From a virus (taxonomy: Duplodnaviria > Caudoviricetes), in the IMG/VR virus record IMGVR_UViG_3300027921_000029, positions 1 through 38,889 of that record: a DNA stretch of 38,889 bases. The stretch is one strand, 5' to 3'. Position 1 is the first letter of the stretch; each line of letters begins with the position of its first letter. Made by a program: the position numbers and the translations under genes. Shown in pieces: positions 1-37,490 of the stretch. The notes beneath the pieces are model-generated. The model searched no databases, was not told the origin of the DNA, and saw nothing but the letters and a program-made list of their open reading frames with translations.

Positions 1-55
1 TAGCGCCGCGTGCTGGAGTTTGGCGAACAGGGCCAGGAGCCCGCCGCAGTGATAG
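1..55 (-). pseudogene. cas8c: 3' continuation of interrupted cas8c (Cas11-like C-terminal region); runs off the window
   Basis: Minus strand reads YHCGGLLALFAKLQHAAL, resembling the Cas8c 'AYxxGRLLAvLxxlQxxAL' segment. In frame with the 5' part once the prophage is removed. Confidence 0.85.
51..55 (+). repeat. Target-site duplication, left copy (GATAG)
   Basis: Same 5-mer at 36066-36070. The match extends to TGATAG, but the extra T is better assigned to the phage end. Confidence 0.85.
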
Positions 56-164
56 AGTAGGGAGGGGGGAGAAACCGGACGGTCAATGAAGGGAAAAAAT
101 GGCCCGGAAGCCGCGTGGTTACTGAGAAGTCGGCCGGAAGGCGGAAATCTTGATTTCCGGACAG
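56..164 (+). repeat. Left end (attL) with putative transposase-binding sites
   Basis: Begins AGTA. CCGGA at nt 20 from the end, as at the right end. TTGATTTCCGGAC at 150-162 matches the right-end repeats and lies in the inverted pair CGGAAATC-TT-GATTTCCG (142-159). Confidence 0.65.
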
Positions 165-258
165 TGCAGGGGGAAAAGTGGGGGAACCTCGGGCAGAAAC
201 AGAGGGAAATTAGGACGGGCGTTGGGGTATTTATCCTATTTGAAGAAGGTTTATTAGA

Positions 259-762
259 TCATCGAACACGGTTTAGAACGGCTGTCAGATGGTCTTCAAT
301 TACATCGGTAACAAGCTTCTGGTCTGAGGGAGGGAAGCCGATCAGGGGACGGGCGGGAAGGCCTGGGTGGTTTACTCGCTTGCGGTACATGCCGCCGAAC
401 TTGAGCGCTTTGGCCTTCGTCGGGGTGATGGTGTAGGGCTTGGTGCCGAAATGGTGGAGGGCGGCTTTCCAGTCATTCGACCCGAGGTGCAGGGTGTCGC
501 CATCGACCTGGTATTGGAATCGCAACAGGTCGCCGTGGTCATAGAGCATCTTCGGCTTGCGCTTGGTCTGGAGTGTCAGGGGCGACAGTTCCTTCCACTT
601 CGACCCATCCGGCGCCAGGCCTTGATCGTGCCGCTCCTGGTTCACTCGCAGCAATGATTCACCTAGGCTTCCGAGCATCTCCTGTGGCGTGGCGATCTCA
701 CGGCGCACCGCCTCAAGGGCTCGGGTCAGGTGGGAGACTTGGAATTCGATGGCGTATTGCAT
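259..762 (-). CDS. Phage virion morphogenesis protein (Mu gpG-like)
   Basis: PDGSKWKELSP…YDHGDL…HHFG…PARPLIG motifs; follows MuF; ATG at 762. Confidence 0.88.
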   Translation of the reverse strand: MQYAIEFQVSHLTRALEAVRREIATPQEMLGSLGESLLRVNQERHDQGLAPDGSKWKELSPLTLQTKRKPKMLYDHGDLLRFQYQVDGDTLHLGSNDWKAALHHFGTKPYTITPTKAKALKFGGMYRKRVNHPGLPARPLIGFPPSDQKLVTDVIEDHLTAVLNRVR

Positions 763-767
763 ATAGT
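739..767 (+). promoter_or_regulatory. Putative sigma70 promoter, antisense to the late left arm
   Basis: TTGGAA (739-744), 17 bp spacer, TATAGT (762-767). Confidence 0.45.
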
Positions 768-773
768 GGCCTT

Positions 774-858
774 GTGGTGACGTCAGACTGCGTTTCGGCG
801 CTACTGCCCAGTATCGGAACCACACCAACGCGGCCCACGGGCCGCGTTTCTATTTCTT
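774..858 (+). ncRNA. Candidate small structured RNA with a tRNA-like acceptor end
   Basis: GTGGT (774-778) pairs with ACCAC (819-823), followed by A-CCA (824-827). Internal UUCG hairpin (790-801). Promoter upstream and terminator hairpin downstream. Confidence 0.4.
827..858 (+). terminator. Intrinsic terminator-like hairpin (T-rich tail on the plus strand)
   Basis: AACGCGGCCC-AC-GGGCCGCGTT followed by TCTATTTCTT; abuts the muF stop codon. Confidence 0.6.
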
Positions 859-2130
859 GAACACCAGCCGACCTTTGCGTTGTCGGCTGAAGTAGGCTTG
901 GCGCTGGGCATCGCTCTTCTGAGTGGTCATGAACGCGGTGGAGCCGGTCCAGCCGGTGCGGCCCCACTCGAAAATGGAGACGCCGAATTCATTGCTTTCC
1001 TCCAGCTCGAACGCGCGCAGGTAACGGCGTTTCAGGCGCCAGCGGCCGTTTACGGCGTGGTCCTTCACCCAATCCCACCAGATTTCATCCGGTTCTATCA
1101 ACGTCATCGCCAGCAGGTTGACGTATTTCAGCCGCTCCGCCTTATCTGGCTTGCCGAGCCACTTGAAGTTGCCCTGCCCATCCTCAAACAGCGCCTTGGT
1201 GATGGCCAGCGTGCTACCTGCGGCATCGGTGAACGCCGCGCCGCGCTCCAGATCGGCGCCGAACACATCCAGGAAATCCGTTACCGCCTCTTCCGGAGGT
1301 GTGCCGGGAGGCAGGATTACGCGGGCCGGTACTTTCGTTGGTGCCGGTAGTGGCGGCCTTGGGATGCTGGTAGGCCACGGCTTGTCGCGCTCATTTATCA
1401 CTGCGTCATAGCCTTGCAGCGGTGGGACGGTGTGCGGCTCCAGCCAGGACTTGCCGGGGCTGTGGCCGAATCCAGGATCAATGCCAACCGGGGTGCTGAC
1501 GGTGCGCGGGTTGCTGCCGGTCTTGCCGACCACCTTCTCTTCCCATTCGATGGGCGGGGCTTCGTCCGGGCCGGTCTTGCCGGCCTTCTCCCACTCTCGG
1601 CTGGCTTCCAGGCGGGAGAGCGAATCCACGCGGCACTTGCAGCCCCAGCCGTTCTGTGGCGAGTGGGTGTCCCACCAGGGATCGTCGGCGGAGAGGATCA
1701 GGCCATCCCACGCCTGGTGCTGAAGGCGGGGATGTTCGATGCTGGTGTGGCGATAACGCCAGTAGGGGCGCAGGTGTTTGACCGCCTGCATCTGCTGGTA
1801 GCGGCCGGCGTTGTAGGCTTGAGTGATGTTGGTGTCGTAGATCACCTTGCTGCGCCAACCGGGAGAGCCGTTGTAGGCCCAGCCGTGCTTGGCGGCGATT
1901 TCCTCGAACTGCTTACGGAAGGCCGCGTAGCCGGTACCCTGTTCCTGCGCCTGGCGGATGGCGTTGTGGAAGTCTTCCAGCAAGGCATCCTGGGCGGCGC
2001 CCGCCACCACGAAGGCGTGGCTGTGCTGTTGCTCCCAGATGTCCGTCCAGCCCGAGGTCGGGAGCTGGGTTTTCTGGCGGAAGAATTCGATGGCCTGCTG
2101 GAATGGCAGGCGGGCGGGGGAGTCAGGCAT
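850..2130 (-). CDS. MuF (Mu gp30-like) head morphogenesis protein with C-terminal PBECR-like nuclease extension
   Basis: N-terminal MuF motifs (AFVVAGA, HPRLQH, PQNGWGCKCRV). C-terminal region with EPDEIW…KRRYL…GWTGSTAF…RKGRLVF. Confidence 0.85.
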   Translation of the reverse strand: MPDSPARLPFQQAIEFFRQKTQLPTSGWTDIWEQQHSHAFVVAGAAQDALLEDFHNAIRQAQEQGTGYAAFRKQFEEIAAKHGWAYNGSPGWRSKVIYDTNITQAYNAGRYQQMQAVKHLRPYWRYRHTSIEHPRLQHQAWDGLILSADDPWWDTHSPQNGWGCKCRVDSLSRLEASREWEKAGKTGPDEAPPIEWEEKVVGKTGSNPRTVSTPVGIDPGFGHSPGKSWLEPHTVPPLQGYDAVINERDKPWPTSIPRPPLPAPTKVPARVILPPGTPPEEAVTDFLDVFGADLERGAAFTDAAGSTLAITKALFEDGQGNFKWLGKPDKAERLKYVNLLAMTLIEPDEIWWDWVKDHAVNGRWRLKRRYLRAFELEESNEFGVSIFEWGRTGWTGSTAFMTTQKSDAQRQAYFSRQRKGRLVFKK

Positions 2131-2353
2131 TATTCTTAGGCGTAACGTCAAGCCTGAAGCTGCGATCTGGGTACATCTTTACCGCCTTTCTGAGAGCCCG
2201 CCGCGCCTCGTTAAAACTGGTGTATCGCACGGCCATATCCAGGTCGTTTGAAGCGCATAGGAGGCCAGGATCGTCTTCGTCGCTTGGCTGACCAAGCCAG
2301 CAAGGGCCAGGCGCGTTGACGCAAATGACGTAATCGAGTTTTTCGGGTGTCAT
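2123..2353 (-). CDS. Small hypothetical protein (76 aa)
   Basis: Overlaps both neighbours (translational coupling). Confidence 0.65.
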   Translation of the reverse strand: MTPEKLDYVICVNAPGPCWLGQPSDEDDPGLLCASNDLDMAVRYTSFNEARRALRKAVKMYPDRSFRLDVTPKNNA

Positions 2354-2634
2354 TTCTCGGCACCCCCAATATCCGCCCTACCACCAGAATCAGGCGCAAA
2401 CGGTGCGGCCTCATTTTCTTCTGCCATGACCCGCATCAAACGCTCCAGAGCGGCCAGTGTCTTGGGGCTTCTTCCACCACCACTACCAGGCCGACAGAAT
2501 TCAACCGTTACACATGCCGGTTTATCGGTCATTTGATCGAAGCCATCGCAAATCACATGCACGTCACCGTCGCCGTCCGTCCTGAGCCGCAGTTTTGCGC
2601 CTCTCGCCATATCCCCGTGGCGCTCGACTTTCAT
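2350..2634 (-). CDS. Small hypothetical phage protein (94 aa)
   Basis: ATGA overlaps with the portal stop and with the next gene; VEFC…GGGRSP motif. Confidence 0.7.
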   Translation of the reverse strand: MKVERHGDMARGAKLRLRTDGDGDVHVICDGFDQMTDKPACVTVEFCRPGSGGGRSPKTLAALERLMRVMAEENEAAPFAPDSGGRADIGGAEK

Positions 2635-4175
2635 TTCTCCACCCCCGCCCTACCCCCCAAATTCGCCGCCGCCATCCCCAGCGCCAGCGACTCCGCCCAT
2701 GCGGGATTGCTGACGGTCAGCGCCTCCATGCTGGCGATCGCGGCCTCAAAATCCCCCGCCTCGGCCACCACGGCGGCGATCTGCTGAATCATGGCCTGCT
2801 CATGCGGTGCGCACAGGGCCGCGAGCTGGGCGGCGTAGGCGCCTGGGAGGTCTTCGGCGGGCGCTTTGTCTTGCGCGGCCAAGGCGGCGAGGCGCACCAG
2901 GGCGGCGCCGGCAGGTGACGCACCAGCCTTGGGCGTGGCCAGTAGCCTCGCATCCTTCGCCGCGCGCGGGATCTGCATGGTCTTGTGCGCCCAATCCAGG
3001 TCGATTTCCATGCCCATGCCGACCGCCTTTTCCAGCACGTCGGCCATCTTGCCCTGGTCTACCGTCTCCTCGGTTTGATAGCCGAAGGTCGGAATCCGGT
3101 CTTCCGGGAACATGCCGTTCAGCAGGGCGATGGGGCGCACCAGTTGTGCCTGGATGGCCGGGACGATCTGCCGTACATCGTGCAACATGATCTCGCGGCG
3201 CACCTGGTTGTGGATCTCGCCGAGTGCGTTGGTCGACGTCTTGCCATCGGCCTGCGACGTCAATGTGCCGCCCAGGATCGCCATCGACTGTTTGCGTTCC
3301 CAGTATTCCGTCGCGTGCAGGAAGTCGTCGATGGTGCCGGCCTTGGCCGCCTGGATGAAGTCGATGCTCATGGTGCTGGGCACCACGCCGGCGCCGTCGT
3401 GGCCGATGTTGCGCACCGCGCGCAGCAGCTCGTCGCGTTGCTTGGGCGCGATGCCTGCCGGGTACTTGCCCAGGCGCAGCGGCAAGCCATACATCTCCAG
3501 GAAGCGCTGCATGTCGCGGATGTTGTAGGCCTTGTAGGCGTAGGTCCAGGCCAGCACGCGGAACAGCGCCGCCTGTGCGATGTATCCCGACTTGGCGCGG
3601 TGCTCATGCACGACCCAACCCCACTCGCGCAGGGGTTCGGGGATGCCGTTTTTCACATAGCGCAGTTCGCCGGTAGCGGTTTCCACCCGGAACTCCCGTT
3701 GTGGCACCCAATTCAGCGCCCGAGGCGTCCATTCAGCCCCAGTGCGCCAGTCAATTTCCAGTGCCGCGATGCCCTTGCCGACGGCATCGGTCACGTCATA
3801 TTGCGCATCTTCGAAGCGCGGGATTTCAGCCAGCATGACGGACAACTCCAGCGTCCTGTCGATTTCGGATTGGCTGGCGTCGTCATGCGGCGTCAGTTGC
3901 CAGCCCAGGCCGGTCACCGCCCGGCGTCGTTTGGCGAGTTCCGCGAAGATGTGCGGGTCCTGCTCTTCCACCAGCTCGAACAGGGTGGCCTGTTCCGTGA
4001 TGAAGCCCTGGTCGGCCGAGGCGAAGGCCTGGGCCAGGCGCGACGGGTCCAGCGTGTTGCTGCTGGCATAGTTGAGCGTGTTGCCCTGAGTGGAGCGCGG
4101 CCCAGCCTGGAGCGTGGCCAGGGCGCTCTTGCTCACACGCGACAGAGCCGCCACGAACTTCTGTTTAATCGTCAT
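2631..4175 (-). CDS. Portal protein (Mu gp29, DUF935-like)
   Basis: FLEMYGLPLRLGKYP, AILGGTLTS and ALGEIHNQVR motifs; follows terminase; start 4175 with GAGGA upstream. Confidence 0.92.
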   Translation of the reverse strand: MTIKQKFVAALSRVSKSALATLQAGPRSTQGNTLNYASSNTLDPSRLAQAFASADQGFITEQATLFELVEEQDPHIFAELAKRRRAVTGLGWQLTPHDDASQSEIDRTLELSVMLAEIPRFEDAQYDVTDAVGKGIAALEIDWRTGAEWTPRALNWVPQREFRVETATGELRYVKNGIPEPLREWGWVVHEHRAKSGYIAQAALFRVLAWTYAYKAYNIRDMQRFLEMYGLPLRLGKYPAGIAPKQRDELLRAVRNIGHDGAGVVPSTMSIDFIQAAKAGTIDDFLHATEYWERKQSMAILGGTLTSQADGKTSTNALGEIHNQVRREIMLHDVRQIVPAIQAQLVRPIALLNGMFPEDRIPTFGYQTEETVDQGKMADVLEKAVGMGMEIDLDWAHKTMQIPRAAKDARLLATPKAGASPAGAALVRLAALAAQDKAPAEDLPGAYAAQLAALCAPHEQAMIQQIAAVVAEAGDFEAAIASMEALTVSNPAWAESLALGMAAANLGGRAGVEK

Positions 4176-5886
4176 CGTCCCATTCCTCATCATTGCTTCT
4201 GCCCCGGCTGGTGGAGCGGGAGCGGGTGCGGCCCCGGCCGGCCGAGGTGTATTGCCACTCGCCGCCGAATTGCGTGGCGATTGAATGCAGCATTTCCAGC
4301 GCATCCGGGCCGTCGTCGTGGCTGGCCTCAGGCCAAAACTTCAGTTGTTCAATTAGGGTGGATTGCGTGCGGTGCAGGCGGATCAGGCCGTTGGACACAT
4401 GAGGTTGCAGGCTGATGATGCGCAGCCCCTTATCCGTGGACGGCGTGACCGGCACGCCGGGGAAGGCGATACCGCGCAGCGCGGCCCGCTTCACCAGCTC
4501 GCTGAACAGAAACGCCTGGAACTGCACCGTCTCCACTGCCCAGGCCACACAGGCGTATTCCGCCTGCAAGTCGATGGCGCGGCTGATGATCAGGTCCGGC
4601 ACCCGGCGGGCGATGTCCGCCTCCACCACGTCCAGGACCATCGTTTCTCGGTTCAGCCCGCCCACCAGCAGCGCCGACGGGTCGCGCGCCGCGCCTTGCC
4701 GACCAAGGGATGGGTCGATGGAACCAAAAAACACCCAATCCGAGCGCCGATCCACCCAGAATTGCAGGGTACGGAACGGCGCATCCTCATCGTTCCCCGC
4801 TTCGTTCTGGTATTCCTGGTTGAACGAATCGTGGTTGGTCGCACGGATGGTCATCAGCCGGTACAGCGGGCGCACCTCCGGCCAGCTCATCACCGCGCCG
4901 GCCTCCATCTCCGCCTTGTGGCGGCGGTAGAAGTTCAGGGCGTCGGCCTCTGCGGCTTCCTTGGCTGCGTCGTCATCGCCACCGCTGGTGTAGAGCGCCT
5001 CCCACTTGTCCCACAGTGCCAGGTTATCCGGCCATTGCAGAATCGCCCGGAACACCCGGCGCCGCCAGCCCGGCGCCCTGGCCACCCGGTTGATCGCCGC
5101 GTCGTAGTGCAGCGACGTGCCTACCCAGAACACATCCATGCCGCCCTGGGGCGGTGCCAGGCCCAGCACGGCGGAGAGCACGAACTTCTGCGTCTTGTCG
5201 CGCTGGCCCTTGTCCTTCACGTTCTCGTCGTTCTCCAGATCGTCCAGAAACACCAAGTCCGGCCGGTACGGCCCGTGTTTCATGCCGCGCAGCTTCTTGC
5301 CGGTACCGCCGGTCCTGATCTTGATGCCGTTGCGGGTGATCGCCGTGGTGGCCTGCCACACGCGGCCCTCGCCCACCGCCTCCGGGAAGTCCTGCGCCAG
5401 GCGCGGGTTGGTGTCCAACTCCGCCTTGATCGACGCCAGCATCTCGTCGGCCTGTTCCTGGGTATTCATCACGACCGCGACCATGTGCTTGCGCGCCTTG
5501 GCGGGCAGGCCTAAGCCGGCCAGATAGTTGGCGCGGCAGACGCACCACAGCGTGCCCAGTTGCGTCTCGTAGGTCGATTTCGCTTCGCCGCGCGGGGCTT
5601 CATGCACCTCGCGGGAATCGGTGGGGCCGTCGATCAGCGCCGGCAAGCGCTGGAACACGAACTGCTGGAACAGCGAGAAATGCGGGGTCGGGACGTAGTG
5701 CGGGAAGTAGGTCTGGCAGAAGAACTGATAGTCCACGATGGCCCGCTCGCGCCGCGCCAGGCTGGCGGCGGGGTCAGTGGGGAACGCCTCGCACTCCAGT
5801 TCGATCATCTGCCGCAGTTCTTCGCCGAGCTTCGCCAGCTCCAGCTCGAACTCGCGGCGGGTGCGGATTTCTTTGGGGTCGCTCAT
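4165..5886 (-). CDS. Terminase large subunit
   Basis: Walker A-like APRGEAKST, RPDLVFLDDLE, nuclease motifs IDPSLG and HDDGPDALEM. Confidence 0.93.
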   Translation of the reverse strand: MSDPKEIRTRREFELELAKLGEELRQMIELECEAFPTDPAASLARRERAIVDYQFFCQTYFPHYVPTPHFSLFQQFVFQRLPALIDGPTDSREVHEAPRGEAKSTYETQLGTLWCVCRANYLAGLGLPAKARKHMVAVVMNTQEQADEMLASIKAELDTNPRLAQDFPEAVGEGRVWQATTAITRNGIKIRTGGTGKKLRGMKHGPYRPDLVFLDDLENDENVKDKGQRDKTQKFVLSAVLGLAPPQGGMDVFWVGTSLHYDAAINRVARAPGWRRRVFRAILQWPDNLALWDKWEALYTSGGDDDAAKEAAEADALNFYRRHKAEMEAGAVMSWPEVRPLYRLMTIRATNHDSFNQEYQNEAGNDEDAPFRTLQFWVDRRSDWVFFGSIDPSLGRQGAARDPSALLVGGLNRETMVLDVVEADIARRVPDLIISRAIDLQAEYACVAWAVETVQFQAFLFSELVKRAALRGIAFPGVPVTPSTDKGLRIISLQPHVSNGLIRLHRTQSTLIEQLKFWPEASHDDGPDALEMLHSIATQFGGEWQYTSAGRGRTRSRSTSRGRSNDEEWDDDD

Positions 5887-6065
5887 GCGGGCACGCACAA
5901 GGGAGGAGACTGGACGCGGTACGCTGGATTTGGACACCTTCGGCCTTGGCACCAGCACACTCGGGCGCTACCCCGATCTTGTCCTTTCCGTCCCGGCAGC
6001 AACCGGGCACCGTAGAGGGCCGCTATCACCGGCCAATCTCCTCTCTTGTGCGCACAGTGGTTCAT
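5883..6065 (-). CDS. Small Cys/Arg-rich hypothetical protein (60 aa)
   Basis: ATGA overlaps at both ends; exactly fills the gap. Confidence 0.55.
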   Translation of the reverse strand: MNHCAHKRGDWPVIAALYGARLLPGRKGQDRGSARVCWCQGRRCPNPAYRVQSPPLCVPA

Positions 6066-6664
6066 TTGCGTGTCATCCGCGCCACCTGCACCAACCAGGC
6101 CGCCAGGCTGGGCGGGGTGTGTTCACGCTCGGCGCGGCTGACCTCCGGCCGCCACAGCGGGTGGCCCTTGCGCACCCGCTCGCCGGTTGCGGTGCGGCGA
6201 TCCTTCGACATCGCCACGACGTGTGTAGGCTCGCCAAGCACTAGCGGGATGGGCGGAATATCGCGCGGTGAGACGCCGACGATGTACAGCAGGGTGGCTT
6301 TCTGCGCCCGATGGCCCCACCAATGCTGATGAATCGGCAGCGTCCAGCCGCCGTGCTCGTCGTAATAGCCGGGTGGCGGAAGCTGCGCCTCCTGCCATAG
6401 CCGCGAGGCGCGCGGGTGCTCCAGCACGCCGCCGTAGCGGCGCACCATATCGACGGCGAAAAACGCCAGGTCGCGCTCGCCCGGTTCGGGCTTGGCGATG
6501 TGGGCGAAGCTCGCCCAGGCCCGGCACGGCGGATGGGCTACAACAGGCGCGCCACCAGGCCAGCGCCGGGCATCGCGGTCATGGTCCCAGACATCGCAGC
6601 CAGGGAGCGATTTGTAATGGCTGTCGCGGCGGGCGAACAGCACGGCGACGGGGCGCTCAGCCAT
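6062..6664 (-). CDS. Compact DNA cytosine methyltransferase-like protein (200 aa)
   Basis: HPPC (motif IV-like), VLEHP (VI-like) and QHWWGHRAQKAT (VIII-like); start MAERPV at 6664. Confidence 0.55.
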   Translation of the reverse strand: MAERPVAVLFARRDSHYKSLPGCDVWDHDRDARRWPGGAPVVAHPPCRAWASFAHIAKPEPGERDLAFFAVDMVRRYGGVLEHPRASRLWQEAQLPPPGYYDEHGGWTLPIHQHWWGHRAQKATLLYIVGVSPRDIPPIPLVLGEPTHVVAMSKDRRTATGERVRKGHPLWRPEVSRAEREHTPPSLAAWLVQVARMTRK

Positions 6665-7151
6665 ACCGCCTCCCCAGCACCGCCCCGATTTCATCCAGGT
6701 GCGGTTGCAGCGCCCGCAGCGCGCCGGGGTCGGCGGTGCGCAGGTGCTCGGCGACGGTGCGCAGGGTATCCAGCGCCACAGCCAGGCCGGAATAGGCCGG
6801 GTTGATGCGGGCGAAGGCCCGCGAGAACTTGGCATAGGCGTCGGCGAGCTGGGCCAGTAGTTGCGCCTTGTCGGCGGCCGGGATGGTGGCGGTCTCCAGT
6901 TCGCGGGTGGTGGTGATGACCTGGCGGGCGAAATCCTCCACCAGCTGCTGGTTAAGGTCGCCGATGCCTTGCTCGCTGATGCGGTAGGCGCCGCGCGCGG
7001 TGTCCCAGTTGTCACCATTAGCCGTCGCCCGCGTCTTCCAGTCCCGCGCCGTGTCGTAGCTCACGCCGCAGGTCACCGCCGCGCCATTGAGGGGCAGGCC
7101 CTCGATATAGAGCTGGCGGACGCGGTCGCGGGTTTCCTGGGAATGGGCCAT
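6657..7151 (-). CDS. DUF1804-like protein, probable terminase small subunit
   Basis: N-terminal HTH (MAHSQETRDRVRQLY…GVSYDTARDWK…GDNWDTAR); upstream of terL. Confidence 0.8.
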   Translation of the reverse strand: MAHSQETRDRVRQLYIEGLPLNGAAVTCGVSYDTARDWKTRATANGDNWDTARGAYRISEQGIGDLNQQLVEDFARQVITTTRELETATIPAADKAQLLAQLADAYAKFSRAFARINPAYSGLAVALDTLRTVAEHLRTADPGALRALQPHLDEIGAVLGRRYG

Positions 7152-7537
7152 TACAGGCGCTTCAGCAGTTCAACGATGCCTGCGGCCAGCGCGCCGCCGA
7201 TGCCACCGCCCAGGGCGGAGAGCTTGGAGACTTTGCCGATCATGACCTTCTCGCCCGTCTCCAGCGTGCTGACACGGCCGGAGAGGCCGTCGATGCGCTT
7301 GCCGACGGATTCATCCATCGCGCGCAGGCCTTGCGTGACATCGTTGATGCGGAGATTCAGCCCCTTCTCCATGTGGTCCATGCGGTCGTTGCTGGACCGC
7401 TCCAGGCGGGCGATGTCCTGGCGGATGTCATCGATGCGACGGGTGAGGCCGTCATTCATTGCTTTGACGGCGCCGGTCAGTTCGCCGATCGAATGCATGA
7501 CCTGCGAATCGTCGCGACGGTTGTTACTGGCGTCCAT
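7151..7537 (-). CDS. Coiled-coil protein with hydrophobic C-terminus
   Basis: Heptad-like pattern and GGGIGGALAAGIV tail; coupled to neighbours between lysis and terminase genes. Confidence 0.75.
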   Translation of the reverse strand: MDASNNRRDDSQVMHSIGELTGAVKAMNDGLTRRIDDIRQDIARLERSSNDRMDHMEKGLNLRINDVTQGLRAMDESVGKRIDGLSGRVSTLETGEKVMIGKVSKLSALGGGIGGALAAGIVELLKRL

Positions 7538-8036
7538 GGGGCACCCCCTCTTCGTATGAAATCAGTTTGTCGAGCCTGGCGCGGCAGGTCTCGTAGCGGT
7601 CCCAGGCGTGGGCGATCCAATCGCCGATGTCGGTATCGGTGGCAGCGGCTCCATCCGCTGCAACAGGTGTGCCGGCGGCTGCGGGCACAGGGGCTGCGGC
7701 GGGGGGCGCGTAGGCGCGGTTGAGCACGCCGACAACCCCGCCATCAAGGCAAGGCCGGCCAGTAGTGAGTTTGCGTAACGCATGGGAAACCTCCAGGGAT
7801 TTGCGGGCCAGGTCGGCCTCGGAACGGGACAGGTCGGCGGACAGGGCATCGCCGCGCACCACGGCAGCCTCCACCCACTCGCGCGCCACCTTGGCGGCGG
7901 CGGCTTCGTCCCGCGCCTGGGCCGCGCGGATGTCCGCGATCTCGGCGCGGTAGTGGTTGCGCGCCACGCCAGCCGCGCTGGCGGCGCCCAGGGCGCCGGC
8001 GACTACGGCCACCAGCCAGAGCGGCGGGCTGAACAT
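7524..8036 (-). CDS. Rz-like inner-membrane spanin
   Basis: N-terminal TM segment, Ala-rich coiled coil, two Cys; directly after the endolysin. Confidence 0.8.
   Translation of the reverse strand: MFSPPLWLVAVVAGALGAASAAGVARNHYRAEIADIRAAQARDEAAAAKVAREWVEAAVVRGDALSADLSRSEADLARKSLEVSHALRKLTTGRPCLDGGVVGVLNRAYAPPAAAPVPAAAGTPVAADGAAATDTDIGDWIAHAWDRYETCRARLDKLISYEEGVPHGRQ
7562..7783 (-). CDS. Rz1-like outer-membrane lipoprotein spanin, embedded in Rz
   Basis: GGAGG RBS, signal peptide with lipobox LSA-C, Pro-rich mature part; alternative frame inside Rz. Confidence 0.85.
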   Translation of the reverse strand: MRYANSLLAGLALMAGLSACSTAPTRPPPQPLCPQPPAHLLQRMEPLPPIPTSAIGSPTPGTATRPAAPGSTN

Positions 8037-8698: not shown

Positions 8699-9021
8699 GC
8701 CCCCAGGCCAATGGCCAGCATCGCCGCGCCGACGATGATGGCGCGGCGGAGCATGGCGACTGCAAAGATCAGTTCCGCGCCGGGCTGGATGGCGTAGTCA
8801 GGCACATACGGCGCACCGGCCGAGAACGGCTTGACCAGCCAGGTGTCCGGCCGCGCGTAGGGGAACAGCTCGCGATCCAGCCAATAGCCCGCCACGCCGG
8901 CCGTGCCGACCAGAGAGAGCTTGTAGAGGCTGACGGGGAGTTGTTGTGGCGCAAGCGCCAGGATGGCGAGCAACAACACAATGGTGGCAATCAGCCACCT
9001 GGACAATCGGGGGAGTTTCAT
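8695..9021 (-). CDS. Putative holin (2-3 TM)
   Basis: Hydrophobic segments; GYWLDRELFPYARP and AMLRRAIIV motifs; first gene of the lysis cassette; GGAG RBS. Confidence 0.85.
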   Translation of the reverse strand: MKLPRLSRWLIATIVLLLAILALAPQQLPVSLYKLSLVGTAGVAGYWLDRELFPYARPDTWLVKPFSAGAPYVPDYAIQPGAELIFAVAMLRRAIIVGAAMLAIGLGA

Positions 9022-9071
9022 GGCGCGGTCTCCGGTCATGGATGGGTGCCCACGGGGGTGTGGGTGACCGG

Positions 9072-9120
9072 AGACTACGCGGGCGCGCGAGGTGGGCTTA
9101 GGCGGGAAACGTTTCCCGCC
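9072..9120 (-). promoter_or_regulatory. Late promoter for the lysis/packaging arm (activator box plus -10)
   Basis: Perfect palindrome GGCGGGAAACGTTTCCCGCC (9101-9120), 23 nt, TAGTCT. Confidence 0.75.
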
Positions 9121-9122
9121 CT

Positions 9123-9181: not shown

Positions 9182-9183
9182 TG

Positions 9184-10653: not shown

Positions 10654-10670
10654 TTTTTTACCAATTGGGG

Positions 10671-29505: not shown

Positions 29506-30499
29506 GCTGCTATTCAATGGCCGGCGCTATGGCTTCTGGCAAAAGGTCGAGATACGGGAATCGGTGGATGATCTGTGTGCCGGGGTACGCCTGGCCATTA
29601 CCCGGCCCGGCACCGGGGATGCACTGGGCCTGACGCCCAACACGGTGGTGCAAGTGCTGGTCGATGGGATGCTGGTATCGACGGTGCGGCCGGACAGCAT
29701 TCATCGCCAGGTGGATGCGAACAGCCACACGATCAGCATCGATGCCCGGTCGCTCGGGCGTGAGCTGGTCGATTGCCAGATTTCCACAACGCTGAAAGGC
29801 CTGCGTTTGGGCGAAATTGTGAGGCGGCTTTGTGAGCGCTTTGAAGTGCCTGTGAAGCTGGCTTCGCAAACCGCCGTGGTGCCTGAATTCAGCATGCAAT
29901 GCGAGTTGCCGGCGAATGCGTTGATCAACGCGGCGCGGGCGGCCGATCTGCTGCTCTACCCGCTACCGGACGGCGGCCTGATCCTCACCAGCCCGACCAG
30001 CGCGGCACCCGTGGCCACGCTGGAATATGGGGTGAACCTCAAGCGCTATGGGGTGGTGGATGAATTCAAGTTGCGCTTCTCGGAGTACGTGGTGAAGGGC
30101 TACGACCATGAGGCGAACGCGGCGCTAAAGGGGTTCGCCGGGGACGCCGGGATCAACTTCTTCCGGCCCATGCACATCGTGGCCGACCGGCACGGCCAGG
30201 GGGTGGGCGGCTGCGGCCGCCGCGCCCTGATGGAGCGCAATCGCCGGCTGGCGCGGGCGCATCGGCTTGACCTCGAAGTGCAGGGCTGGAGCCACGCTTC
30301 CGGACTGTGGGCGATCAATACCCAGGTGCGAGTGATCATTCCGCAGGAGGGCATCGATGGGGTGTTTCTGATCGGTGAACGCGCCTTCTCCCTGGATGAC
30401 CAGGGCGGCAGCGTCACCCATCTTCAAGTGATGCACCGTGACGCGTTCATCGGGATCGAGAAGAAGCAAACCAAGCGCGGCGCGGGGGTGAAGAAATGA
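29498..30499 (+). CDS. Baseplate hub protein (Mu gpP/gp44-like)
   Basis: ELVDC, RFSEYVVKG, VQGW…LWAINTQV motifs. Confidence 0.88.
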   Translation: MVELLFNGRRYGFWQKVEIRESVDDLCAGVRLAITRPGTGDALGLTPNTVVQVLVDGMLVSTVRPDSIHRQVDANSHTISIDARSLGRELVDCQISTTLKGLRLGEIVRRLCERFEVPVKLASQTAVVPEFSMQCELPANALINAARAADLLLYPLPDGGLILTSPTSAAPVATLEYGVNLKRYGVVDEFKLRFSEYVVKGYDHEANAALKGFAGDAGINFFRPMHIVADRHGQGVGGCGRRALMERNRRLARAHRLDLEVQGWSHASGLWAINTQVRVIIPQEGIDGVFLIGERAFSLDDQGGSVTHLQVMHRDAFIGIEKKQTKRGAGVKK

Positions 30500-31011
30500 T
30501 GGCTCAGGTGTGGGCGCGGCTACAGCTCCTGTTCGCGCACGGCCGGGGCCTGCTGATCGGCCCGGACAAGGTGCAGGCGCAGGTACTGGACGATGAGACG
30601 CTGGATAACATCGCCCGAGTTGAGCCCTACGGCTTCAGCTACCGGCCGCATCCCGGCTGCGAGACCTACCTGCTGTTCCCGGCCGGTGACCGCTCCTATG
30701 GCGTGGCCCTAATCATCGGCGACCGGCGCTATCAGATGGATCTGGTGGAGGGCGAGGTGGCGCTGCATGACGATGAGGGCAATCACGTCCACCTCAAGCG
30801 CGGCGGCATCATTGAAGTGAAGGCCAGCACCAAGGTGCTGGCGGATACGCCGCTGTTCGAGGTGACAGGTAACGCGAAGATCGGCGGCACCCTGACGGTG
30901 TTGGGCGGCGCCATGGTCACAGGCGTGTACGAGGTCAACGGCAAGAACGTGAGCGATAGCCACACCCACACCAGTAATGCGCAGGGCGCGCCGACCTCGG
31001 GAGTCAATTGA
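30496..31011 (+). CDS. Baseplate spike (Mu gp45-like)
   Basis: EPYGFSYRP, DRRY…GEVALHD, C-terminal HTH(T) metal-binding motif. Confidence 0.9.
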   Translation: MMAQVWARLQLLFAHGRGLLIGPDKVQAQVLDDETLDNIARVEPYGFSYRPHPGCETYLLFPAGDRSYGVALIIGDRRYQMDLVEGEVALHDDEGNHVHLKRGGIIEVKASTKVLADTPLFEVTGNAKIGGTLTVLGGAMVTGVYEVNGKNVSDSHTHTSNAQGAPTSGVN

Positions 31012-31012
31012 T

Positions 31013-31420
31013 ATGCTGAAACTGGTGCAGGTGGATAACGGCGTGTTCGATTTGATGTTTGACGACCCCACCATGAACGATGCCGATGCCGATGCCGCCG
31101 TGGCCACGCTGGTATACGCGGTGTTATTCACTGATGCCGAGGCGCCGGACGCCCGTGTGGCGGACAGCTACGAGCGCCGGGGCTGGTGGGCCAATCCCCA
31201 GGCGGGGAGTGGCCTCTGGCATGTGCGACGCCAGCCCCTCGGCAGCGCCGCCCGGCGTGAGGCGCTGGACTTGGTGCGCACCGCGTTGCAGTCGCATGCG
31301 CCGGGTCTCACTGGCATAGAAGTATCGGACGTCACCCCGCCGGGAAACGTTTCCAGCGTGATGCTGGCCCTCGCCGGTCTGCACAATGGCCGCCAATTCG
31401 CCATCCGCATACCCCTGTGA
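31013..31420 (+). CDS. Baseplate protein (Mu gp46-like)
   Basis: LFTDAEA…RRGWW…GSGLW. Confidence 0.85.
   Translation: MLKLVQVDNGVFDLMFDDPTMNDADADAAVATLVYAVLFTDAEAPDARVADSYERRGWWANPQAGSGLWHVRRQPLGSAARREALDLVRTALQSHAPGLTGIEVSDVTPPGNVSSVMLALAGLHNGRQFAIRIPL
31339..31387 (+). promoter_or_regulatory. Putative internal late promoter inside the gp46-like gene
   Basis: GCCGGGAAACGTTTCCAGCG (31339-31358), 23 nt, CACAAT. Confidence 0.55.
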
Positions 31421-32463
31421 CCGCCTACGCCCGCCCCACCTACGAGGATCTGAAGACGCGCATCGATGCCGATCTGGCCGATATGCCCGCCGTCCTGCGC
31501 GGGCCGCTGTCGGCGGCCTGGGCGCGCGCCTGCCATAGCCAGCACGGCTATCTGGAGTGGATCGACGCGCAATGCTCGCCGCTGACCTGCGAGCTTGAGC
31601 GGCTCTACGACTGGGCCGCCCTGTATGGCGTGGATAGGCTACTGGCCACCGCCGCCATCGGCTCAGCTCTGGCCACCGGGACGCTCGGCACTCAACTATT
31701 GGCCGGCACCCTATTACGCGGCCAGAACGGCCTGGATTACACGGTACTGGCCGCCGTGGTGCTGGGCGCCGGCTCCACCCCCGTTACCGTCCGCTGCACC
31801 GCCACGGGCAGCGCCGGAAACCAAGCCGCAGGCCTCACTCTCGCCCTGGTCGATCCAGTCCCGGGTTGTGCCGGAACGCTGACCATTTCCGCCCCTGGCC
31901 TCACCGGCGGTGCCGAAGAGGAATCGCTGGAAGACTGGCGCGCCCGCGTGGCCGACGAGTGGCGCACCGTCGTCACACGCGGCGCCCGATCTGGCAAGCC
32001 GGATGATTACCGCTACTGGGCGCGGACTGCCCACCCCTCAATCACCACAGCCCTGATCCAGATGCACACCCTGGGCATCGGCACAGTGGTGGTGCGCCCG
32101 ATCTGCGATGGCCTGGCCAGCCGCCTGCCTACCCAGGCCGTGCTGGATGCGGTGGCCGCCTATCTGCTGGCCACCGCGCCGGCTAACGCCGACTGGCGGG
32201 TGGTGGCCCCCCTGGTGCGACCCGTGGCGGTGTCGCTCCATCTGCTGCCGGGCTACGACACAGCCGGCAATCGCGCCGCCATTACCGGCGCCATCGCCAC
32301 GGCCGTGCTGGCAGAGACCAGCGAGACCGCGCTGCTCGCGATGGCCGAGATTGACGCGGCCATCGCTACCGTCACCAGCCAATACACCCGGATCGCGCCG
32401 ACCGCCGACGTCGCCGTCGCGCCCGGCGAAGTCTTGGTGTTGTCTCCCATCGTCTGGTCATGA
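31417..32463 (+). CDS. Baseplate J-like protein (Mu gp47)
   Basis: HGYLEWI, GGAEEESLEDWRARV, DYRYWA motifs. Confidence 0.9.
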   Translation: MTAYARPTYEDLKTRIDADLADMPAVLRGPLSAAWARACHSQHGYLEWIDAQCSPLTCELERLYDWAALYGVDRLLATAAIGSALATGTLGTQLLAGTLLRGQNGLDYTVLAAVVLGAGSTPVTVRCTATGSAGNQAAGLTLALVDPVPGCAGTLTISAPGLTGGAEEESLEDWRARVADEWRTVVTRGARSGKPDDYRYWARTAHPSITTALIQMHTLGIGTVVVRPICDGLASRLPTQAVLDAVAAYLLATAPANADWRVVAPLVRPVAVSLHLLPGYDTAGNRAAITGAIATAVLAETSETALLAMAEIDAAIATVTSQYTRIAPTADVAVAPGEVLVLSPIVWS

Positions 32464-33032
32464 TCCTCACCACCCACGCGCCCCGCGACCACGCCGACGC
32501 CTTCAAGGCCCTGCTGCCACCCGGCGCCGCCTGGGATTGGCCGGCGGGCGGCCTGGGCGATGCCCTGCTGCTGGGCACCGCCCAGGAACCGGCCCGCGTC
32601 GAGGCCGCCACGCCGGGCGTGCTGGATACAGCCATCGACACACACCGGCCGGCCACCATGAGCTGGCACATCGACGCCTATCGCCGCGTGGCGGCCGAGT
32701 CGCTGGGCTACCTGGCAGAGGCCATGCCGCGCCGCATGTTCGGCGTCGGCAGCCATGTCGGACAGCGCCTGTGGAGCCACGCCGCGCCGGGCTTGACCTT
32801 CCCCGTCGACCTGGTGCTGGTGGATCACCTGCTGGGGCCGTTCCGCGTAGGCAGTCATGTTGGCGAGAGTCTCTGGAGCACGCGCAGCCGCTACGTGATG
32901 CGCGTGCGCTATTACCGATCCGTGGTCGATCCGGCGCCCCTGTGGGAGGCGCTGGACGCCTTCAAGCAAGCACACGTTTTTCTGTGGTTCGAAGACATTA
33001 CTGGAGTGGGTGGACGCTATGCACCGAATTGA
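32460..33032 (+). CDS. Baseplate/tail protein (Mu gp48-like)
   Basis: ALLPPGAAW…FKQAHV; synteny. Confidence 0.8.
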   Translation: MILTTHAPRDHADAFKALLPPGAAWDWPAGGLGDALLLGTAQEPARVEAATPGVLDTAIDTHRPATMSWHIDAYRRVAAESLGYLAEAMPRRMFGVGSHVGQRLWSHAAPGLTFPVDLVLVDHLLGPFRVGSHVGESLWSTRSRYVMRVRYYRSVVDPAPLWEALDAFKQAHVFLWFEDITGVGGRYAPN

Positions 33033-34026
33033 TGGAGCCGGCAACGTCGGCGGCATGTATGTGGGAGAGGACGCGGCGACCAACCGGCCTCCTACCGAGG
33101 TGACTCCTGAGCACCTGAACGCGATGCAGGAGGAATTGTCGGGGCTGGTGGAGTGGGCGGGACTGGCGCTGAACAAGGGGGACAACACTCAGGTCAGGCA
33201 GGCGTTGCTGGAGAAGTTCGCCGGGCTGGATGCCGGCGCCACCAAGGCTGGCGTGCAGGCCCAAATCTATACCGCCTTCACCACGGGCGGGGCTTCGGGC
33301 GCTTTCACGCTCACCCCCAATCCGGCCATCACCGCCTACGCCGCCGGCCAGCGCTTCCGGGCCAAGTTCCATGCCGCCGGCACCGGGACCGATACGGTCA
33401 ACGTTTCCGGGCTGGGCGCCAAGAGCGTCAAGCAATATGACAGCTCAGGCAGCAAGGCGGCGGCTGTCATCGCGGCCGGGCAACTGGTTGATGCCGAGTA
33501 CGACGGCGTGGACATGGTGCTGCTGGACCCGCTGCCGCCTGCGCTGCCATCGCCATTCCCGCCCGGCGCTGTGATTCATGTCGCCCAGTCGACCGCGCCG
33601 TCCGGGTTCCTTAAGGCCAACGGTGCGCTCGTGTCTCGCACAGCCTATGCGGCCCTGTTTTCGGCTATCGGAACCACATTCGGGGTGGGCGACGGCGGCA
33701 CCACGTTCACCCTGCCCGACCTGCGCGGCGAGTTTATCCGGGGGTGGGATGATGGGCGCGGGGTGGATGCTGGGAGAAATCTTGGTACGGCTCAGAGTTC
33801 GTCCGCCATCGCCAATTACGTTCACTCAGAATCATCTTCAGCAGGTGCGTTCGCAGCAATTGCTGTCGGCATAGTAAATCCTGATGTCAACGGCCCGTTG
33901 CTCACCTGGATCAACGCGAATTACTTCATGGGGGCCGGAAGCGCCACCAGCGGTGGGACCGCTTACGCGGGCACACAAACGCTGCGCCCGCGTAACATCG
34001 CCCTGCTCGCCTGCATCAAATACTGA
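33019..34026 (+). CDS. Tail fibre protein with collar domain
   Basis: MHRIDG…LNAMQEEL; collar motif PSGFLKANGA…LPDLRGEFIRGWDDGRGVD…RPRNIALLACIKY. Confidence 0.92.
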   Translation: MHRIDGAGNVGGMYVGEDAATNRPPTEVTPEHLNAMQEELSGLVEWAGLALNKGDNTQVRQALLEKFAGLDAGATKAGVQAQIYTAFTTGGASGAFTLTPNPAITAYAAGQRFRAKFHAAGTGTDTVNVSGLGAKSVKQYDSSGSKAAAVIAAGQLVDAEYDGVDMVLLDPLPPALPSPFPPGAVIHVAQSTAPSGFLKANGALVSRTAYAALFSAIGTTFGVGDGGTTFTLPDLRGEFIRGWDDGRGVDAGRNLGTAQSSSAIANYVHSESSSAGAFAAIAVGIVNPDVNGPLLTWINANYFMGAGSATSGGTAYAGTQTLRPRNIALLACIKY

Positions 34027-34038
34027 CCGGAGACGACC

Positions 34039-34566
34039 ATGCAAATCCACCACTACCACCCCGATACCGGCCTGCTGCTGGGCACCTCGCAAGCCGATGA
34101 ATCACCGCTGGAGCCTGGCGTGCATCTGATCCAAGCCCATGCCACTGCATCGCCCCCGCCAGCGTTCGGTGCGGGCGAACGGGTCCTGTGGGATGGGGCT
34201 GCCTGGCGCGTCGAGGCTGTCCCCGTGACGCCCGCGCCACCGCCCCCCACCCTGGCCGAGAGCCAGGCATCGGCTGTGATGCGGATCAAAGCCAAAGCGG
34301 GCGAGGTCATCCTGGCGCGGCTACCAGGCTGGAAACAGGCCAACCTCACAGCGCGAGCGATGGAGCTACTCGTTGGCGGGGCGACAGCGTCGCCAGAATT
34401 TGCTGGTATTCAGTCGCAATGGACATGGGTCAAGTCTGTCCGTTGGGAGAGCGACCAAGGCGAGGCCGCAGTGCTCGTTGTACTGGATGATGCAGGAGTG
34501 GCTGCCGCGCTGGAGAGCGCGCTGATCGCGATTGATCTGGTGGCAAAAGACGCCGACGTTGCATGA
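34039..34566 (+). CDS. Tail fibre assembly protein
   Basis: YHPDTG…ADESPLEPGVHLI.AHAT..PP motif; follows the fibre. Confidence 0.8.
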   Translation: MQIHHYHPDTGLLLGTSQADESPLEPGVHLIQAHATASPPPAFGAGERVLWDGAAWRVEAVPVTPAPPPPTLAESQASAVMRIKAKAGEVILARLPGWKQANLTARAMELLVGGATASPEFAGIQSQWTWVKSVRWESDQGEAAVLVVLDDAGVAAALESALIAIDLVAKDADVA

Positions 34567-34925
34567 GCACCTTCACCACCCCCGCCGATCTTCGGATGCT
34601 CGAAAGCTATCGCTGGCAGGTGTTGGTAGCGTTCGAGTACCACGTTGGCGGCTACCCTAGCGCCACAGTGATCAGTGTCCCGGCGGGGACAGTTACGGAC
34701 CTGGCCAGCGCGCCGAGATTGTTGTGGGCGATCTTTCCGCCGCATGGACGCTGGGCCAAGGCCGCCATCATCCATGACTATCTCTACGATCAGGCGATCG
34801 GCCGCAAGGCCGATGCCGACCGGACGTTTCTGGAGGCCATGACGGTCCTGGGGGTGTCCAGATTTACCCGCACTGCTATGTATTGGGCCGTGCGGCTATT
34901 CGGGCGGGGAAACTACAGGCATTGA
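34563..34925 (+). CDS. DUF1353-like protein
   Basis: VPAGTVTDLASAPR…AAIIHDYLY…AD..FLEAM…AVRLFG. Confidence 0.85.
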   Translation: MSTFTTPADLRMLESYRWQVLVAFEYHVGGYPSATVISVPAGTVTDLASAPRLLWAIFPPHGRWAKAAIIHDYLYDQAIGRKADADRTFLEAMTVLGVSRFTRTAMYWAVRLFGRGNYRH

Positions 34926-34930
34926 GACGG

Positions 34931-35024
34931 TGCGACCGTGACGGGTGGTGGAACACCCTTCGCGGCCACCTCTGGCAGATGGAACCTGCGTTTAGCCAAG
35001 GCACCGTGCTGTGCACACAGCGGG
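34931..35024 (+). promoter_or_regulatory. Structured leader upstream of com
   Basis: Hairpins CCGTGA-C-GGGTG/CACCC-T-TCGCGG, GCAG/CTGC and CTGTG/CACAG. Confidence 0.45.
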
Positions 35025-35052
35025 CCGGAAGCTATCACGTGAAAACATAAAA

Positions 35053-35289
35053 ATGGAAACGGTTCGTTGTGGTTCATGCGGCAAAAAACTGGCGGAAGCG
35101 GAATTCATCCGCCTGTCCATCAAGTGCCCCCGCTGTGGGGTGATCAACCAGGTGAAGGCCATTGAGCCTCCAATCAGCGTGCCGAGAGCACCGCATCAGG
35201 AGGTTGTACATGGCAAACCCCATCATCCCGTGGATCGGCGGCAAACGCCGCCTGGCCAAACGGATACTCCCGCTCTTTCCCGCCCATGA
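35053..35289 (+). CDS. com: Com-family zinc-finger regulator
   Basis: RCGSCGKKLA…IKCPRCGVIN; terminal position overlapping the DNA modification gene. Confidence 0.8.
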   Translation: METVRCGSCGKKLAEAEFIRLSIKCPRCGVINQVKAIEPPISVPRAPHQEVVHGKPHHPVDRRQTPPGQTDTPALSRP

Positions 35290-35971
35290 CTGCTACGTGG
35301 AGCCGTTCGCGGGCGGCGCGGCCCTGTACTTCCTGAAAGAGCCATCCGCGACCGAAGTCATCAACGACATCAACGGCGAGCTGGTGAACCTATACAGGGT
35401 GGTTAAACATCACCTCGAAGAGTTCGTCAGACAATTCAAATGGGCTTTGATCAGCCGGAAGATATATGGATGGCTGAAACAGACCCCGGAAGAAACCCTG
35501 ACCGATATCCAGCGCGCCGCCAGGTTCTACTACCTCCAGAAGATGGCGTTTGGCGGCAAGGTGGCCAATCAGACCTTCGGCACGGCCACCACCGCAGCCC
35601 CACGCCTCAACCTGCTGCGTATTGAGGAAGAGCTTTCCGCCGCCCACCTGCGCCTGTCCCGAACCTACATCGAACATCTACCCTGGGACGAATGCGTAAA
35701 GCGCTACGACCGGCCCCACACGCTCTTCTACCTCGACCCGCCGTACTGGGGCACCGAGGGCTACGGCGTCAGCTTCGGGCTTGATCAGTATGCCCTCATG
35801 GCCGAACTGGCCAGGTCGATCAAGGGGAAGATGGTGGTGTCGGTAAACGACATCCCGGAAATGCGCCAAGCGTTCGAAGGGCTGGCAATGGAGCGCGCTG
35901 AGATCAACTACACGGTGGGTGGTGGCGCCCGGAGCAAACCAGCGAGTGAGTTGATCATCCGGAATTGGTAG
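35210..35971 (+). CDS. DNA adenine methyltransferase (Dam/D12 class)
   Basis: PWIGGK, YVEPFAGGAA, INDING and FYLDPPY motifs; AGGAGG RBS. Confidence 0.93.
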   Translation: MANPIIPWIGGKRRLAKRILPLFPAHDCYVEPFAGGAALYFLKEPSATEVINDINGELVNLYRVVKHHLEEFVRQFKWALISRKIYGWLKQTPEETLTDIQRAARFYYLQKMAFGGKVANQTFGTATTAAPRLNLLRIEEELSAAHLRLSRTYIEHLPWDECVKRYDRPHTLFYLDPPYWGTEGYGVSFGLDQYALMAELARSIKGKMVVSVNDIPEMRQAFEGLAMERAEINYTVGGGARSKPASELIIRNW

Positions 35972-36065
35972 CGGATATTCACCATCCAGGATTCACGGCG
36001 TTTTCCCATTTATTGTTCGTCCGGAATTCAAACGCCGTTCATCCGGAAATCAAAGCCGCTTTACT
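35953..36065 (-). repeat. Right end (attR) with tandem putative transposase-binding repeats
   Basis: GTTCGTCCGGAATTCAAA (36015-36032) and GTTCATCCGGAAATCAAA (36037-36054), 22-bp period; weaker copies near 35953 and 35981; ends TACT. Confidence 0.8.
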
Positions 36066-36070
36066 GATAG
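36066..36070 (+). repeat. Target-site duplication, right copy (GATAG)
   Basis: Matches 51-55. Confidence 0.85.
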
Positions 36071-36105
36071 GCCGGGGCCGGGTGGTTGGGGTTGTATGAA
36101 GCAGT

Positions 36106-36123
36106 CATGGTTGTGTCACCTCC
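36106..36123 (-). promoter_or_regulatory. cas11c: Internal RBS and ATG for nested cas11c
   Basis: GGAGGT, 9 nt, in-frame ATG at 36108 (MTASYNPNHPAPAY), at the position expected for type I-C internal initiation. Confidence 0.7.
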
Positions 36124-37490
36124 AGGTTTGCGTCGAACGAAATAGGCTTTGATAAGGCCCATGCGGGCGTGGTTGAAAGCAGGTTGATCCTTGTCCACCA
36201 GGTCGGCGCGAAAGCGGGCAAGCGCCTGGGCCATCAAGGGTTGCGGGATGGGTAGCCCCTGCACGGCGACCTTCCACAAGGTGGCAGCGGTGGGTGCGGG
36301 CAGGTCTTTCAGGTCGCGCACCAGCGCGCCACAGACCGCCATGAACTTGGGATCATGGGCATGGCCGTGACCATCGCGGGCGACGATGGCCAGATCGGAG
36401 AACCAGGCCTCGACATGGCTGACCAGATCCTCGAAACGGCCTTCCATCCAGTCGCGGACCATGACGCGGCCAGCCGCGCCGGAAACGGTCAGAGCGTAGA
36501 AACGGTTGTTTTCTAATTCAGTCCGCTGCCCGGCGCGGATGGCATCGAGGAGACGGCGTACTGCCGCATGCGCGGCGGCTTCGGTTTGCTCCTTGGTTTC
36601 CATGCCCATCAGGAATGCCAGCGGGTCGTCTTCGAGCGGAATCGTGTCTTTGTACCAATGCGCGACCAGGGTGTTGGCGATCTTGCGGGTGTGGTTTCGG
36701 ATGAGGTCATTCAGACCGTCGACATACTTCTGGACGGCTTCTTCGCCCATGGCTGCGTTGGCGGATTGCTTAAGGCCATACGAGCCGAACGCGTCCTTGT
36801 CAAAACCGACCAGGACATCGCCCATCGCCAAGCCGCCGACACCCGATAGCCCGGTAATTTTGGGATGGGTGGCAAGTGGCTTGACGGGCATGCCGGTCAG
36901 TAAGCAGATCATCGAGCCGTTGTCGCTCGGGCTGCCGCCAAGATCGAGTTGGTCCGTAACCGGTTCGCTCGCTTCGCCGGTTCGCCGCCAGGCACGCCAC
37001 CAGGCTTGCACCTCGCTGTCCTCGCGTGGGTCGAAGCCCTTGATGCGCCAGACCATCCAGTCGCTGGGTTTGGCCCTTTGTTCAGCCAGTGCGTTGCGCA
37101 CTTCGGCCAGTCGCTCTGGGTCTTCCAGCAAGGTCGCCAGCATTTCGAGGCATGGAATCGACCCGCTCGCTTCTCGCATCAGCCGGGTAAAGAAACCGTG
37201 GCGAACTTCTGCTGTGGCTATCTTTTTCGTGTCTTCGTTGGTCTTGAACAACAAAACCGCTGTTTGAGTGGTTTCAACCAGGAAGTGCGCTTTTCCTCCC
37301 GCGTTCATGCCGTGCATGTCCGGGCAACGGGGCAACGACTTGCCGCGCTGGCCGTCGCCCAGGGGTATGGCATTCAGGAAACGTCCGTCGCTGGCCAGTT
37401 CGACGAGCCAGCGAATTTCACGGGACTTGAAGCCCGGCTCGGACTCGGACAGATGGGTTTCGGCGTAGGCAACCAGTTCTTGCAGCATGG

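Follow-up and report, generated by a model that had tools for sequence, protein, structure and literature searches.

A transposable prophage inside cas8c

The window analysed here is the whole of IMG/VR virus record IMGVR_UViG_3300027921_000029 (38,889 nt; Duplodnaviria, Caudoviricetes), which holds a transposable prophage flanked on both sides by parts of cas8c, a gene of a type I-C CRISPR-Cas operon (Table 1). Cas8c, Cas5c and Cas3c were confirmed with NCBIfam, Pfam and PADLOC, and the order cas3-cas5c-cas8c is that of type I-C. An initial annotation, made from the sequence alone, had placed a Mu-like prophage in cas8c between flanks that share GATAG; this insertion is confirmed and its coordinates are right, with GATAG at 51–55 and again at 36066–36070, bracketing the prophage at 56–36065. 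The string common to both flanks is six letters long, TGATAG, the extra T being the phage's own last base. A 6-bp duplication was rejected: we assigned the T to the phage because relatives show it as a phage base, and it was not duplicated in four of five matched pairs.

Deletion of positions 56–36070 in silico yielded 491 stop-free codons, reading ...NHPAPAY and continuing across the junction into HCGGLLALFAKLQHAAL. This rejoined Cas8c aligned without gaps to all 12 relatives examined (nearest, 82–84% identical), in agreement with the unbroken frame claimed earlier. The CAG TAA that had been read at the junction was found as well: contributed by the right end of the phage, it stops the cas8c open reading frame (ORF) at 475 aa, the length of Cas8c in five relatives being 585–595 aa.

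Table 1 Features of the window, with the evidence for each.
Feature	Position	Strand	Evidence
3' remnant of cas8c/cas11c (HCGGLLALFAKLQHAAL), cut by record end	1..50	-	rejoined-frame alignment
Left target duplication copy GATAG	51..55	no strand	sequence; 5-bp rule from relatives
KS10-type transposable prophage, 36,010 bp, ends 5'-AGTA...TACT-3'	56..36065	no strand	sequence, PHROGs/Pfam, relatives
Left end: AGT terminus and CCGGA-core repeats (putative transposase sites)	56..170	+	sequence comparison
Leftward late block: holin, endolysin, spanin, DUF1804, terminase, portal, gpF, gpG	259..9039	-	PHROGs/Pfam; KS10 order
Helix-turn-helix repressor	10324..10653	-	PHROGs/Pfam
Divergent Ner-like ORF	10716..10946	+	tblastx to KS10 gp14
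DDE transposase; putative D224, D291, E332 placed by motif	12963..14651	+	PHROGs/Pfam
MuB-like AAA transposition protein	14661..15602	+	PHROGs/Pfam
gemA and mor-like late activator	18113..19153	+	PHROGs/Pfam
Protease, capsid, contractile tail, tape measure, baseplate, fibre, chaperones	19363..34925	+	PHROGs
Com-like zinc ribbon and Dam-family methyltransferase	35011..35971	+	NCBIfam/Pfam
Right end: TCCGGAA repeats and ACT terminus	35957..36065	+	sequence comparison
TAA stopping cas8c, supplied by phage right end	36061..36063	-	sequence
Right target duplication copy GATAG	36066..36070	no strand	sequence
5' part of cas8c, 474 codons, free of other lesions	36066..37488	-	NCBIfam, Pfam, PADLOC
Predicted internal Cas11c start: GGAGG, 10 nt, ATG (Met461)	36106..36123	-	kept in 5/5 relatives
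cas5c, intact ORF	37491..38348	-	NCBIfam, Pfam, PADLOC
cas3 3' end, record ends inside gene	38267..38889	-	PADLOC Cas3c

Predicted effect on type I-C interference

The biofilm bacterium that hosts the phage is probably a betaproteobacterium of Thiobacillaceae type, its Cas8c being 82–84% identical to those of Thiobacillus/Hydrogenophilaceae metagenome-assembled genomes (MAGs). Cas11c is reported to be translated from an internal start at the corresponding position of cas8c (10.1101/2020.04.18.045682), and GGAGG followed by a methionine 129–134 residues from the Cas8c end was present in all five relatives. The break lies 14 codons downstream of the predicted Met461. Both Cas8c and the predicted Cas11c are thus cut, and interference is likely lost; because Cas11c is also affected, the case for a knock-out is stronger than in the first reading, and the disruption of type I-C interference put forward there is very likely. 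Cas8c would be deprived of its last ~116–120 residues, the internally started Cas11c would terminate after 15 residues, 36 kb would come to lie between the operon promoter and cas7-cas4-cas1-cas2, and no Cascade would be assembled. The cas7 gene, expected to follow cas8c, was found in 73 of 80 relative loci; this host's own cas7, along with cas4, cas1, cas2 and the array, lies outside the record. The phage end has no in-frame start codon from which the 3' remnant could be expressed, and this route of rescue was rejected.

Mu does not excise during transposition (PMC3562280), and because Mu-type prophages normally do not excise, the loss of CRISPR function would be stable. The term genetic anti-CRISPR, applied to the insertion in the initial annotation, fits as a description of the outcome and not as a phage-encoded strategy; a search of the phage accessory ORFs for anti-CRISPR or defence genes (Pfam, NCBIfam, PHROGs, PADLOC) gave no convincing match. 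The leftward late operon (259–828, minus strand) is directed out of the left end, towards the cas8c remnant and cas7. No terminator was found on its strand, and read-through into these genes could occur only on induction. Terminator and promoter scans at the junctions stayed at chance level.

Junction coverage and the empty allele in sequencing runs

In run X1, a contig without any difference from window positions 34998–36094 spans the right junction at a depth of 82.7. Flank contigs identical to the window had depths of 78.3 and 78.1, and identical phage contigs 68.9–86.4. The junction contig reaches 29 letters past position 36065 (the bridging threshold being 31 letters) and ends there because the empty allele branches off at that point. 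A search of related DNA for an empty cas8c allele, proposed as a check on the insertion, was successful in two runs: X1 has a contig with this allele, in which the 24 loose letters are identical to window positions 26–49, and X2 carries it on a 5586-bp contig at ~97% identity. Run X5 contained a related phage terminating at the same base with a different flank, and the small-share runs X3, X4 and X6 gave nothing usable. X1 is possibly the window's own source and hence not independent. Junction, phage and flanks are all covered to the same depth (~78–83), so that the window comes from a clonal lysogen, living beside strains with the empty allele.

Alternatively, the record could stem from a single virion-type molecule or from a join made in assembly, the site being one of many lytic copies. 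Mu is reported to package 50–150 bp of host DNA on the left and up to 2–3 kb on the right (PMC5977238), a geometry matched by the 55 bp and 2.8 kb seen here; this is, moreover, a virus record that ends 55 bp beyond the phage, and the left junction was absent among the X1 matches listed. However, the contig over the right junction passes the phage end without a break and is as deep as the phage and the flank, the duplication and a single reading frame are common to both flanks, and the short left flank is accounted for by the empty-allele strains in X1. We consider such an origin very unlikely, and the virion-like flank lengths are best explained as assembly breaks.

Gene content and affiliation of the prophage

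A DDE transposase adjoining a MuB-like ATPase, GemA, Mor, a complete set of head and tail genes, a size within 35–39 kb, a short target duplication and many unrelated insertion sites all place the element among transposable phages; no site-specific integrase was detected among the 58 ORFs scanned. Its earlier description as an intact Mu-like prophage is borne out for Mu-like by the gene set, and intactness is supported by full-length core genes, most of which align near full length to the prophages of MAGs G040 and G215 and to Ralstonia records. These two MAGs, of the Thiobacillaceae family, and the Ralstonia records provide nearer relatives than Burkholderia phage KS10, and the closest prophage, in the probable family of the host, shares 74–88% identity in most core proteins.

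The same split head module occurs in KS10 (NC_011216; PMC2628397) and Curvibacter phage TJ1 (MH766655). As in these phages, a leftward lysis-terminase-portal-gpF block is followed by a central repressor/transposase region, gemA-mor, protease, capsid and contractile tail, so that the early region splits the head genes. TG...CA termini are lacking, as in KS10. DUF1804 is the small terminase in KS10, which is also described as inserting randomly into host genes, as is probable here. Differences from KS10 include a transposase merely 38% identical and the location of gpG, at the left end here and in the tail block in KS10; com-dam lies at the right end here, and dam likewise in TJ1. Ralstonia 'YO' prophage records (e.g. 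ON170019) have the same gene order, with 73% identity in the transposase and 72–73% in the terminase, and their left end also reads AGTAGGGAGG, as in the window; they are unannotated prophage predictions from another host, and the right end is outside the one record compared. With the phage Mu/D3112 group the window phage has in common the DDE transposase and MuB ATPase, the 5-bp stagger, GemA, Mor and Com, whereas gene order differs and the transposase is ~29% identical to that of D3112.

Among other features, a 370-aa accessory ORF (9184–10296, minus strand) between repressor and holin matched no named family, and an Rmf/CrpP-family small protein is encoded among the early genes (17715–17969, plus strand). 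Palindromic GAAACGTTTCC boxes at 9106, 19293, 26195 and 31344, upstream of late gene blocks, are likely Mor-type activator sites. The phage also contains host REP-like (repetitive extragenic palindrome) hairpins at 8567–8599, 9123–9182, 16019, 16878–16973, 17074, 21312, 21757, 24247, 25296 and 26182, one of the hairpins falling within the endolysin ORF. CRISPR-repeat or RNA anti-CRISPR elements at 8567–8599 and 9119–9182, which matched many contigs with unlike flanks, were considered and rejected, these being REP-like hairpins; similar hairpins at 8510–8550, 16820 and 24245 match many places in the host. An Rfam scan of the phage for RNA elements returned nothing credible.

AGT...ACT termini and 5-bp duplications across the clade

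The termini AGT...ACT, at 56–59 and 36062–36065 in the window, were also observed in loci L081–L124 and L197–L337. Among 36 loci found through gpG (duplicates not removed), 26 reach the left end of the phage, all 26 ending in TACT, and ten are too short; of 80 loci found through dam, eight align over the right end and 8/8 end in CTTTACT. Where both ends were present on one contig, a 5-bp duplication was seen in five of seven informative pairs, the two mismatching pairs having very short flanks. For G040, the duplication was already known when the end was looked for, and this end agrees with a separate family-wide DNA search.

Mu and D3112 are described as ending in 5'-TG...CA-3' (PMC3562280, PMC5977238), in contrast to the AGT...ACT found here. 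The KS10 paper reports that phage to be without TG...CA and gives no flanking direct repeat (PMC2628397), whereas the 5 bp are clear in the window. The KS10 record itself starts with AG and finishes with CT; its own duplication is not readable, the only viral contig being trimmed to the phage. No description of an AG...CT end rule was found among the papers that literature searches listed. One viral contig (L221/L327, 21451–24575) carries both end motifs 3.1 kb apart with a CTTAC duplication and gpG inside, and is probably a mini-derivative of the KS10-type clade.

Insertion sites of related prophages

End-flanks of relatives were collected with gene- and motif-based scans. The metagenome end-motif scan was too loose, and 41 of its 81 loci were dropped as chance or unsupported before flanks were counted. 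Of the 79 distinct end-flanks retained, 62 were at least 90 nt long and were scanned with Pfam using the two longest frames of each (112 peptides). No cas gene was detected in any of these 62 flanks; the 20 that Pfam could name all lay in unrelated ordinary genes, and every site was different. Target site bias was weak, with a consensus of S-T-N-A-S (S 48/75, T 36/75, A 37/75 and S 52/75 at positions 1, 2, 4 and 5). The three MAGs that carry the closest prophages (G040, G215 and G013, incomplete genomes) yielded no cas8c.

These counts bear on a target preference, raised in the initial annotation, by which the phage clade would aim at cas genes. There is a precedent for integration by aim in the site-specific phage PhiAP1.1, whose insertion into type II-A repeats likewise silences CRISPR immunity (10.1101/2020.10.09.333658). 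As described, that integration proceeds by site-specific recombination, is reversible and leaves cas genes untouched, unlike the non-specific transposition into a cas gene seen here, and no repeated, site-directed integration in a CRISPR locus appeared among the 62 flanks. The window phage has only a DDE transposase and a MuB-like ATPase, and both KS10 and Mu are reported to insert at random (PMC2628397, PMC5977238). With no flank in cas and a weak bias, we therefore find no support for target preference, which appears highly improbable.

Chance insertion or selected escape

Taking together the directly observed ends, duplication, premature stop, empty allele and equal phage and flank depth, we consider it probable that a KS10-type phage entered cas8c at codon 474 by chance, through weakly biased transposition, likely abolishing type I-C interference in this clone. 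The DDE transposase and MuB-like ATPase would make a 5-bp staggered cut as MuA does, and any gain for the phage would be a side effect.

Several observations weigh against mere chance. Of the 62 flanks, 42 remained without a Pfam name, and the host's own array, outside the record, was never seen. The lysogen appears fixed in its strain: the window's cas haplotype seems fully lysogenic in X1, a pattern that a sweep and a founder effect would explain equally well. When DNA of the whole family was searched with the window phage, it also brought up a second, unrelated Mu-like prophage of ~37.3 kb in a type I-C cas3 (G047:C105:10652-47960; L373–L375). It splits the HD region of cas3 ~30 codons in, the operon being otherwise whole, and has a 5-bp duplication, AGTTG. 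By end-repeat symmetry, which also placed the duplication, its left end reads CCAG...; the right end is ...TACA. In a survey of 222 genomes from the family and 401 from the order, two sets that overlap in part, 19 combined cas8c with a strong Mu-type transposase match (one weak cas8 match excluded; not all are confirmed prophages), and a prophage inside the type I-C operon was present in one of these 19, G047. This exceeds the ~0.05–0.08 expected by chance without being significant (P ~0.05–0.08, post hoc). Finally, viral contigs scanned for Cas7c (32 loci) revealed probable further insertions with one junction each, in cas8c (L412) and between cas3 and cas5c (L413/L414); these have no denominator because they were ascertained through cas genes.

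At L412:473–4725, a diversity-generating retroelement reverse transcriptase, a methylase and a thymidylate-synthase-like gene are followed by triple end repeats, which abut the 3' part of cas8c and cas7-cas2; the element presumably resembles Hankyphage. In L414, a prophage end (repressor, antirepressor, Bor-like) lies at ~5195 inside a small gene between cas3 and cas5c, and L416 holds an empty relative of this site at ~5204. In L417 (970–4800), a degenerate mini-array and cas5-cas8-cas7, with cas3 missing, come after a phage dam gene, possibly as a phage-borne partial I-C module. Partial cas8c matches in G023, G036, G146, G213, G389 and G601 were not counted as insertions, because they end at contig ends. 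The operon of G004 is whole in L004.

The main alternative to chance is selected escape, in which insertion is random, the array targeted or was primed against the phage, and only lysogens hit in cas survived. Interference genes were struck in the window, in G047 and in L412, and there is laboratory precedent in Pseudomonas aeruginosa PA14, where self-targeted lysogens of the Mu-like phage DMS3 are reported to evolve lesions in cas7/cas8 as well as deletions in which the CRISPR region is lost up to the phage boundary, one starting in cas3 (PMC11406979). There, too, Mu-like transposition ends in the loss of cas function; however, that account concerns type I-F, a known self-targeting spacer and mostly deletions, whereas the insertion here is natural and clean, and no spacer is known for it. 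Selection through self-targeting, which the initial annotation also raised, gains no support from the spacers of other genomes. Compared with 787 spacers from 47 arrays of relatives, the window phage gave no match beyond 20 nt, and none of the 17 visible spacers of G047 (among them the leader end, the trailer being lost at the contig end) matches its own prophage, the best reaching 23/35. A spacer signal suggested by X1 contig breaks was discarded: the 33-bp stretch at 34024–34056, deduced from contig overlap to be shared with other X1 DNA, has no TTC protospacer-adjacent motif. A DNA search for spacers in the 222 family genomes, covering 22300–36065 only and two candidates per genome, was uninformative, as REP hits dominated. 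In addition, no Mu gene adjoins type I-C in the 17 other regions fetched from genomes with Mu transposases (some cut by contig ends). We therefore regard selected escape as possible but rather unlikely.

A broader proposal, tentative when all its parts are taken jointly, is that selection for rare insertions in interference genes (cas8c here, cas3 in G047, cas8c in L412) allows several lineages of Mu-like phages to become stable lysogens of hosts with CRISPR immunity. This would amount to a target-free anti-CRISPR that leaves an excess of Mu ends in cas operons, combined with a KS10-type DDE transposase that would cut at CT-3' as against the CA-3' of Mu and retroviral integrases.

Implications

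The mechanism is ordinary, and the interest of the locus is carried by recurrence and by the non-canonical ends. AGT...ACT with a 5-bp duplication defines the termini of a widespread KS10-type clade, fills a gap in the KS10 paper and permits exact mapping of KS10-type prophages; as a natural variant, these ends could also serve to study how DDE transposases recognise the terminal base. A literature search of titles and abstract openings turned up no account of cas8c being occupied by a Mu-like prophage in nature, and in the published cases found, as far as their accounts go, the same outcome arose only through laboratory evolution or site-specific integrases. The window would provide a clean natural case of a transposable phage abolishing host CRISPR interference by insertion and, together with G047, makes it testable whether Mu-like prophage ends are enriched in cas interference genes.

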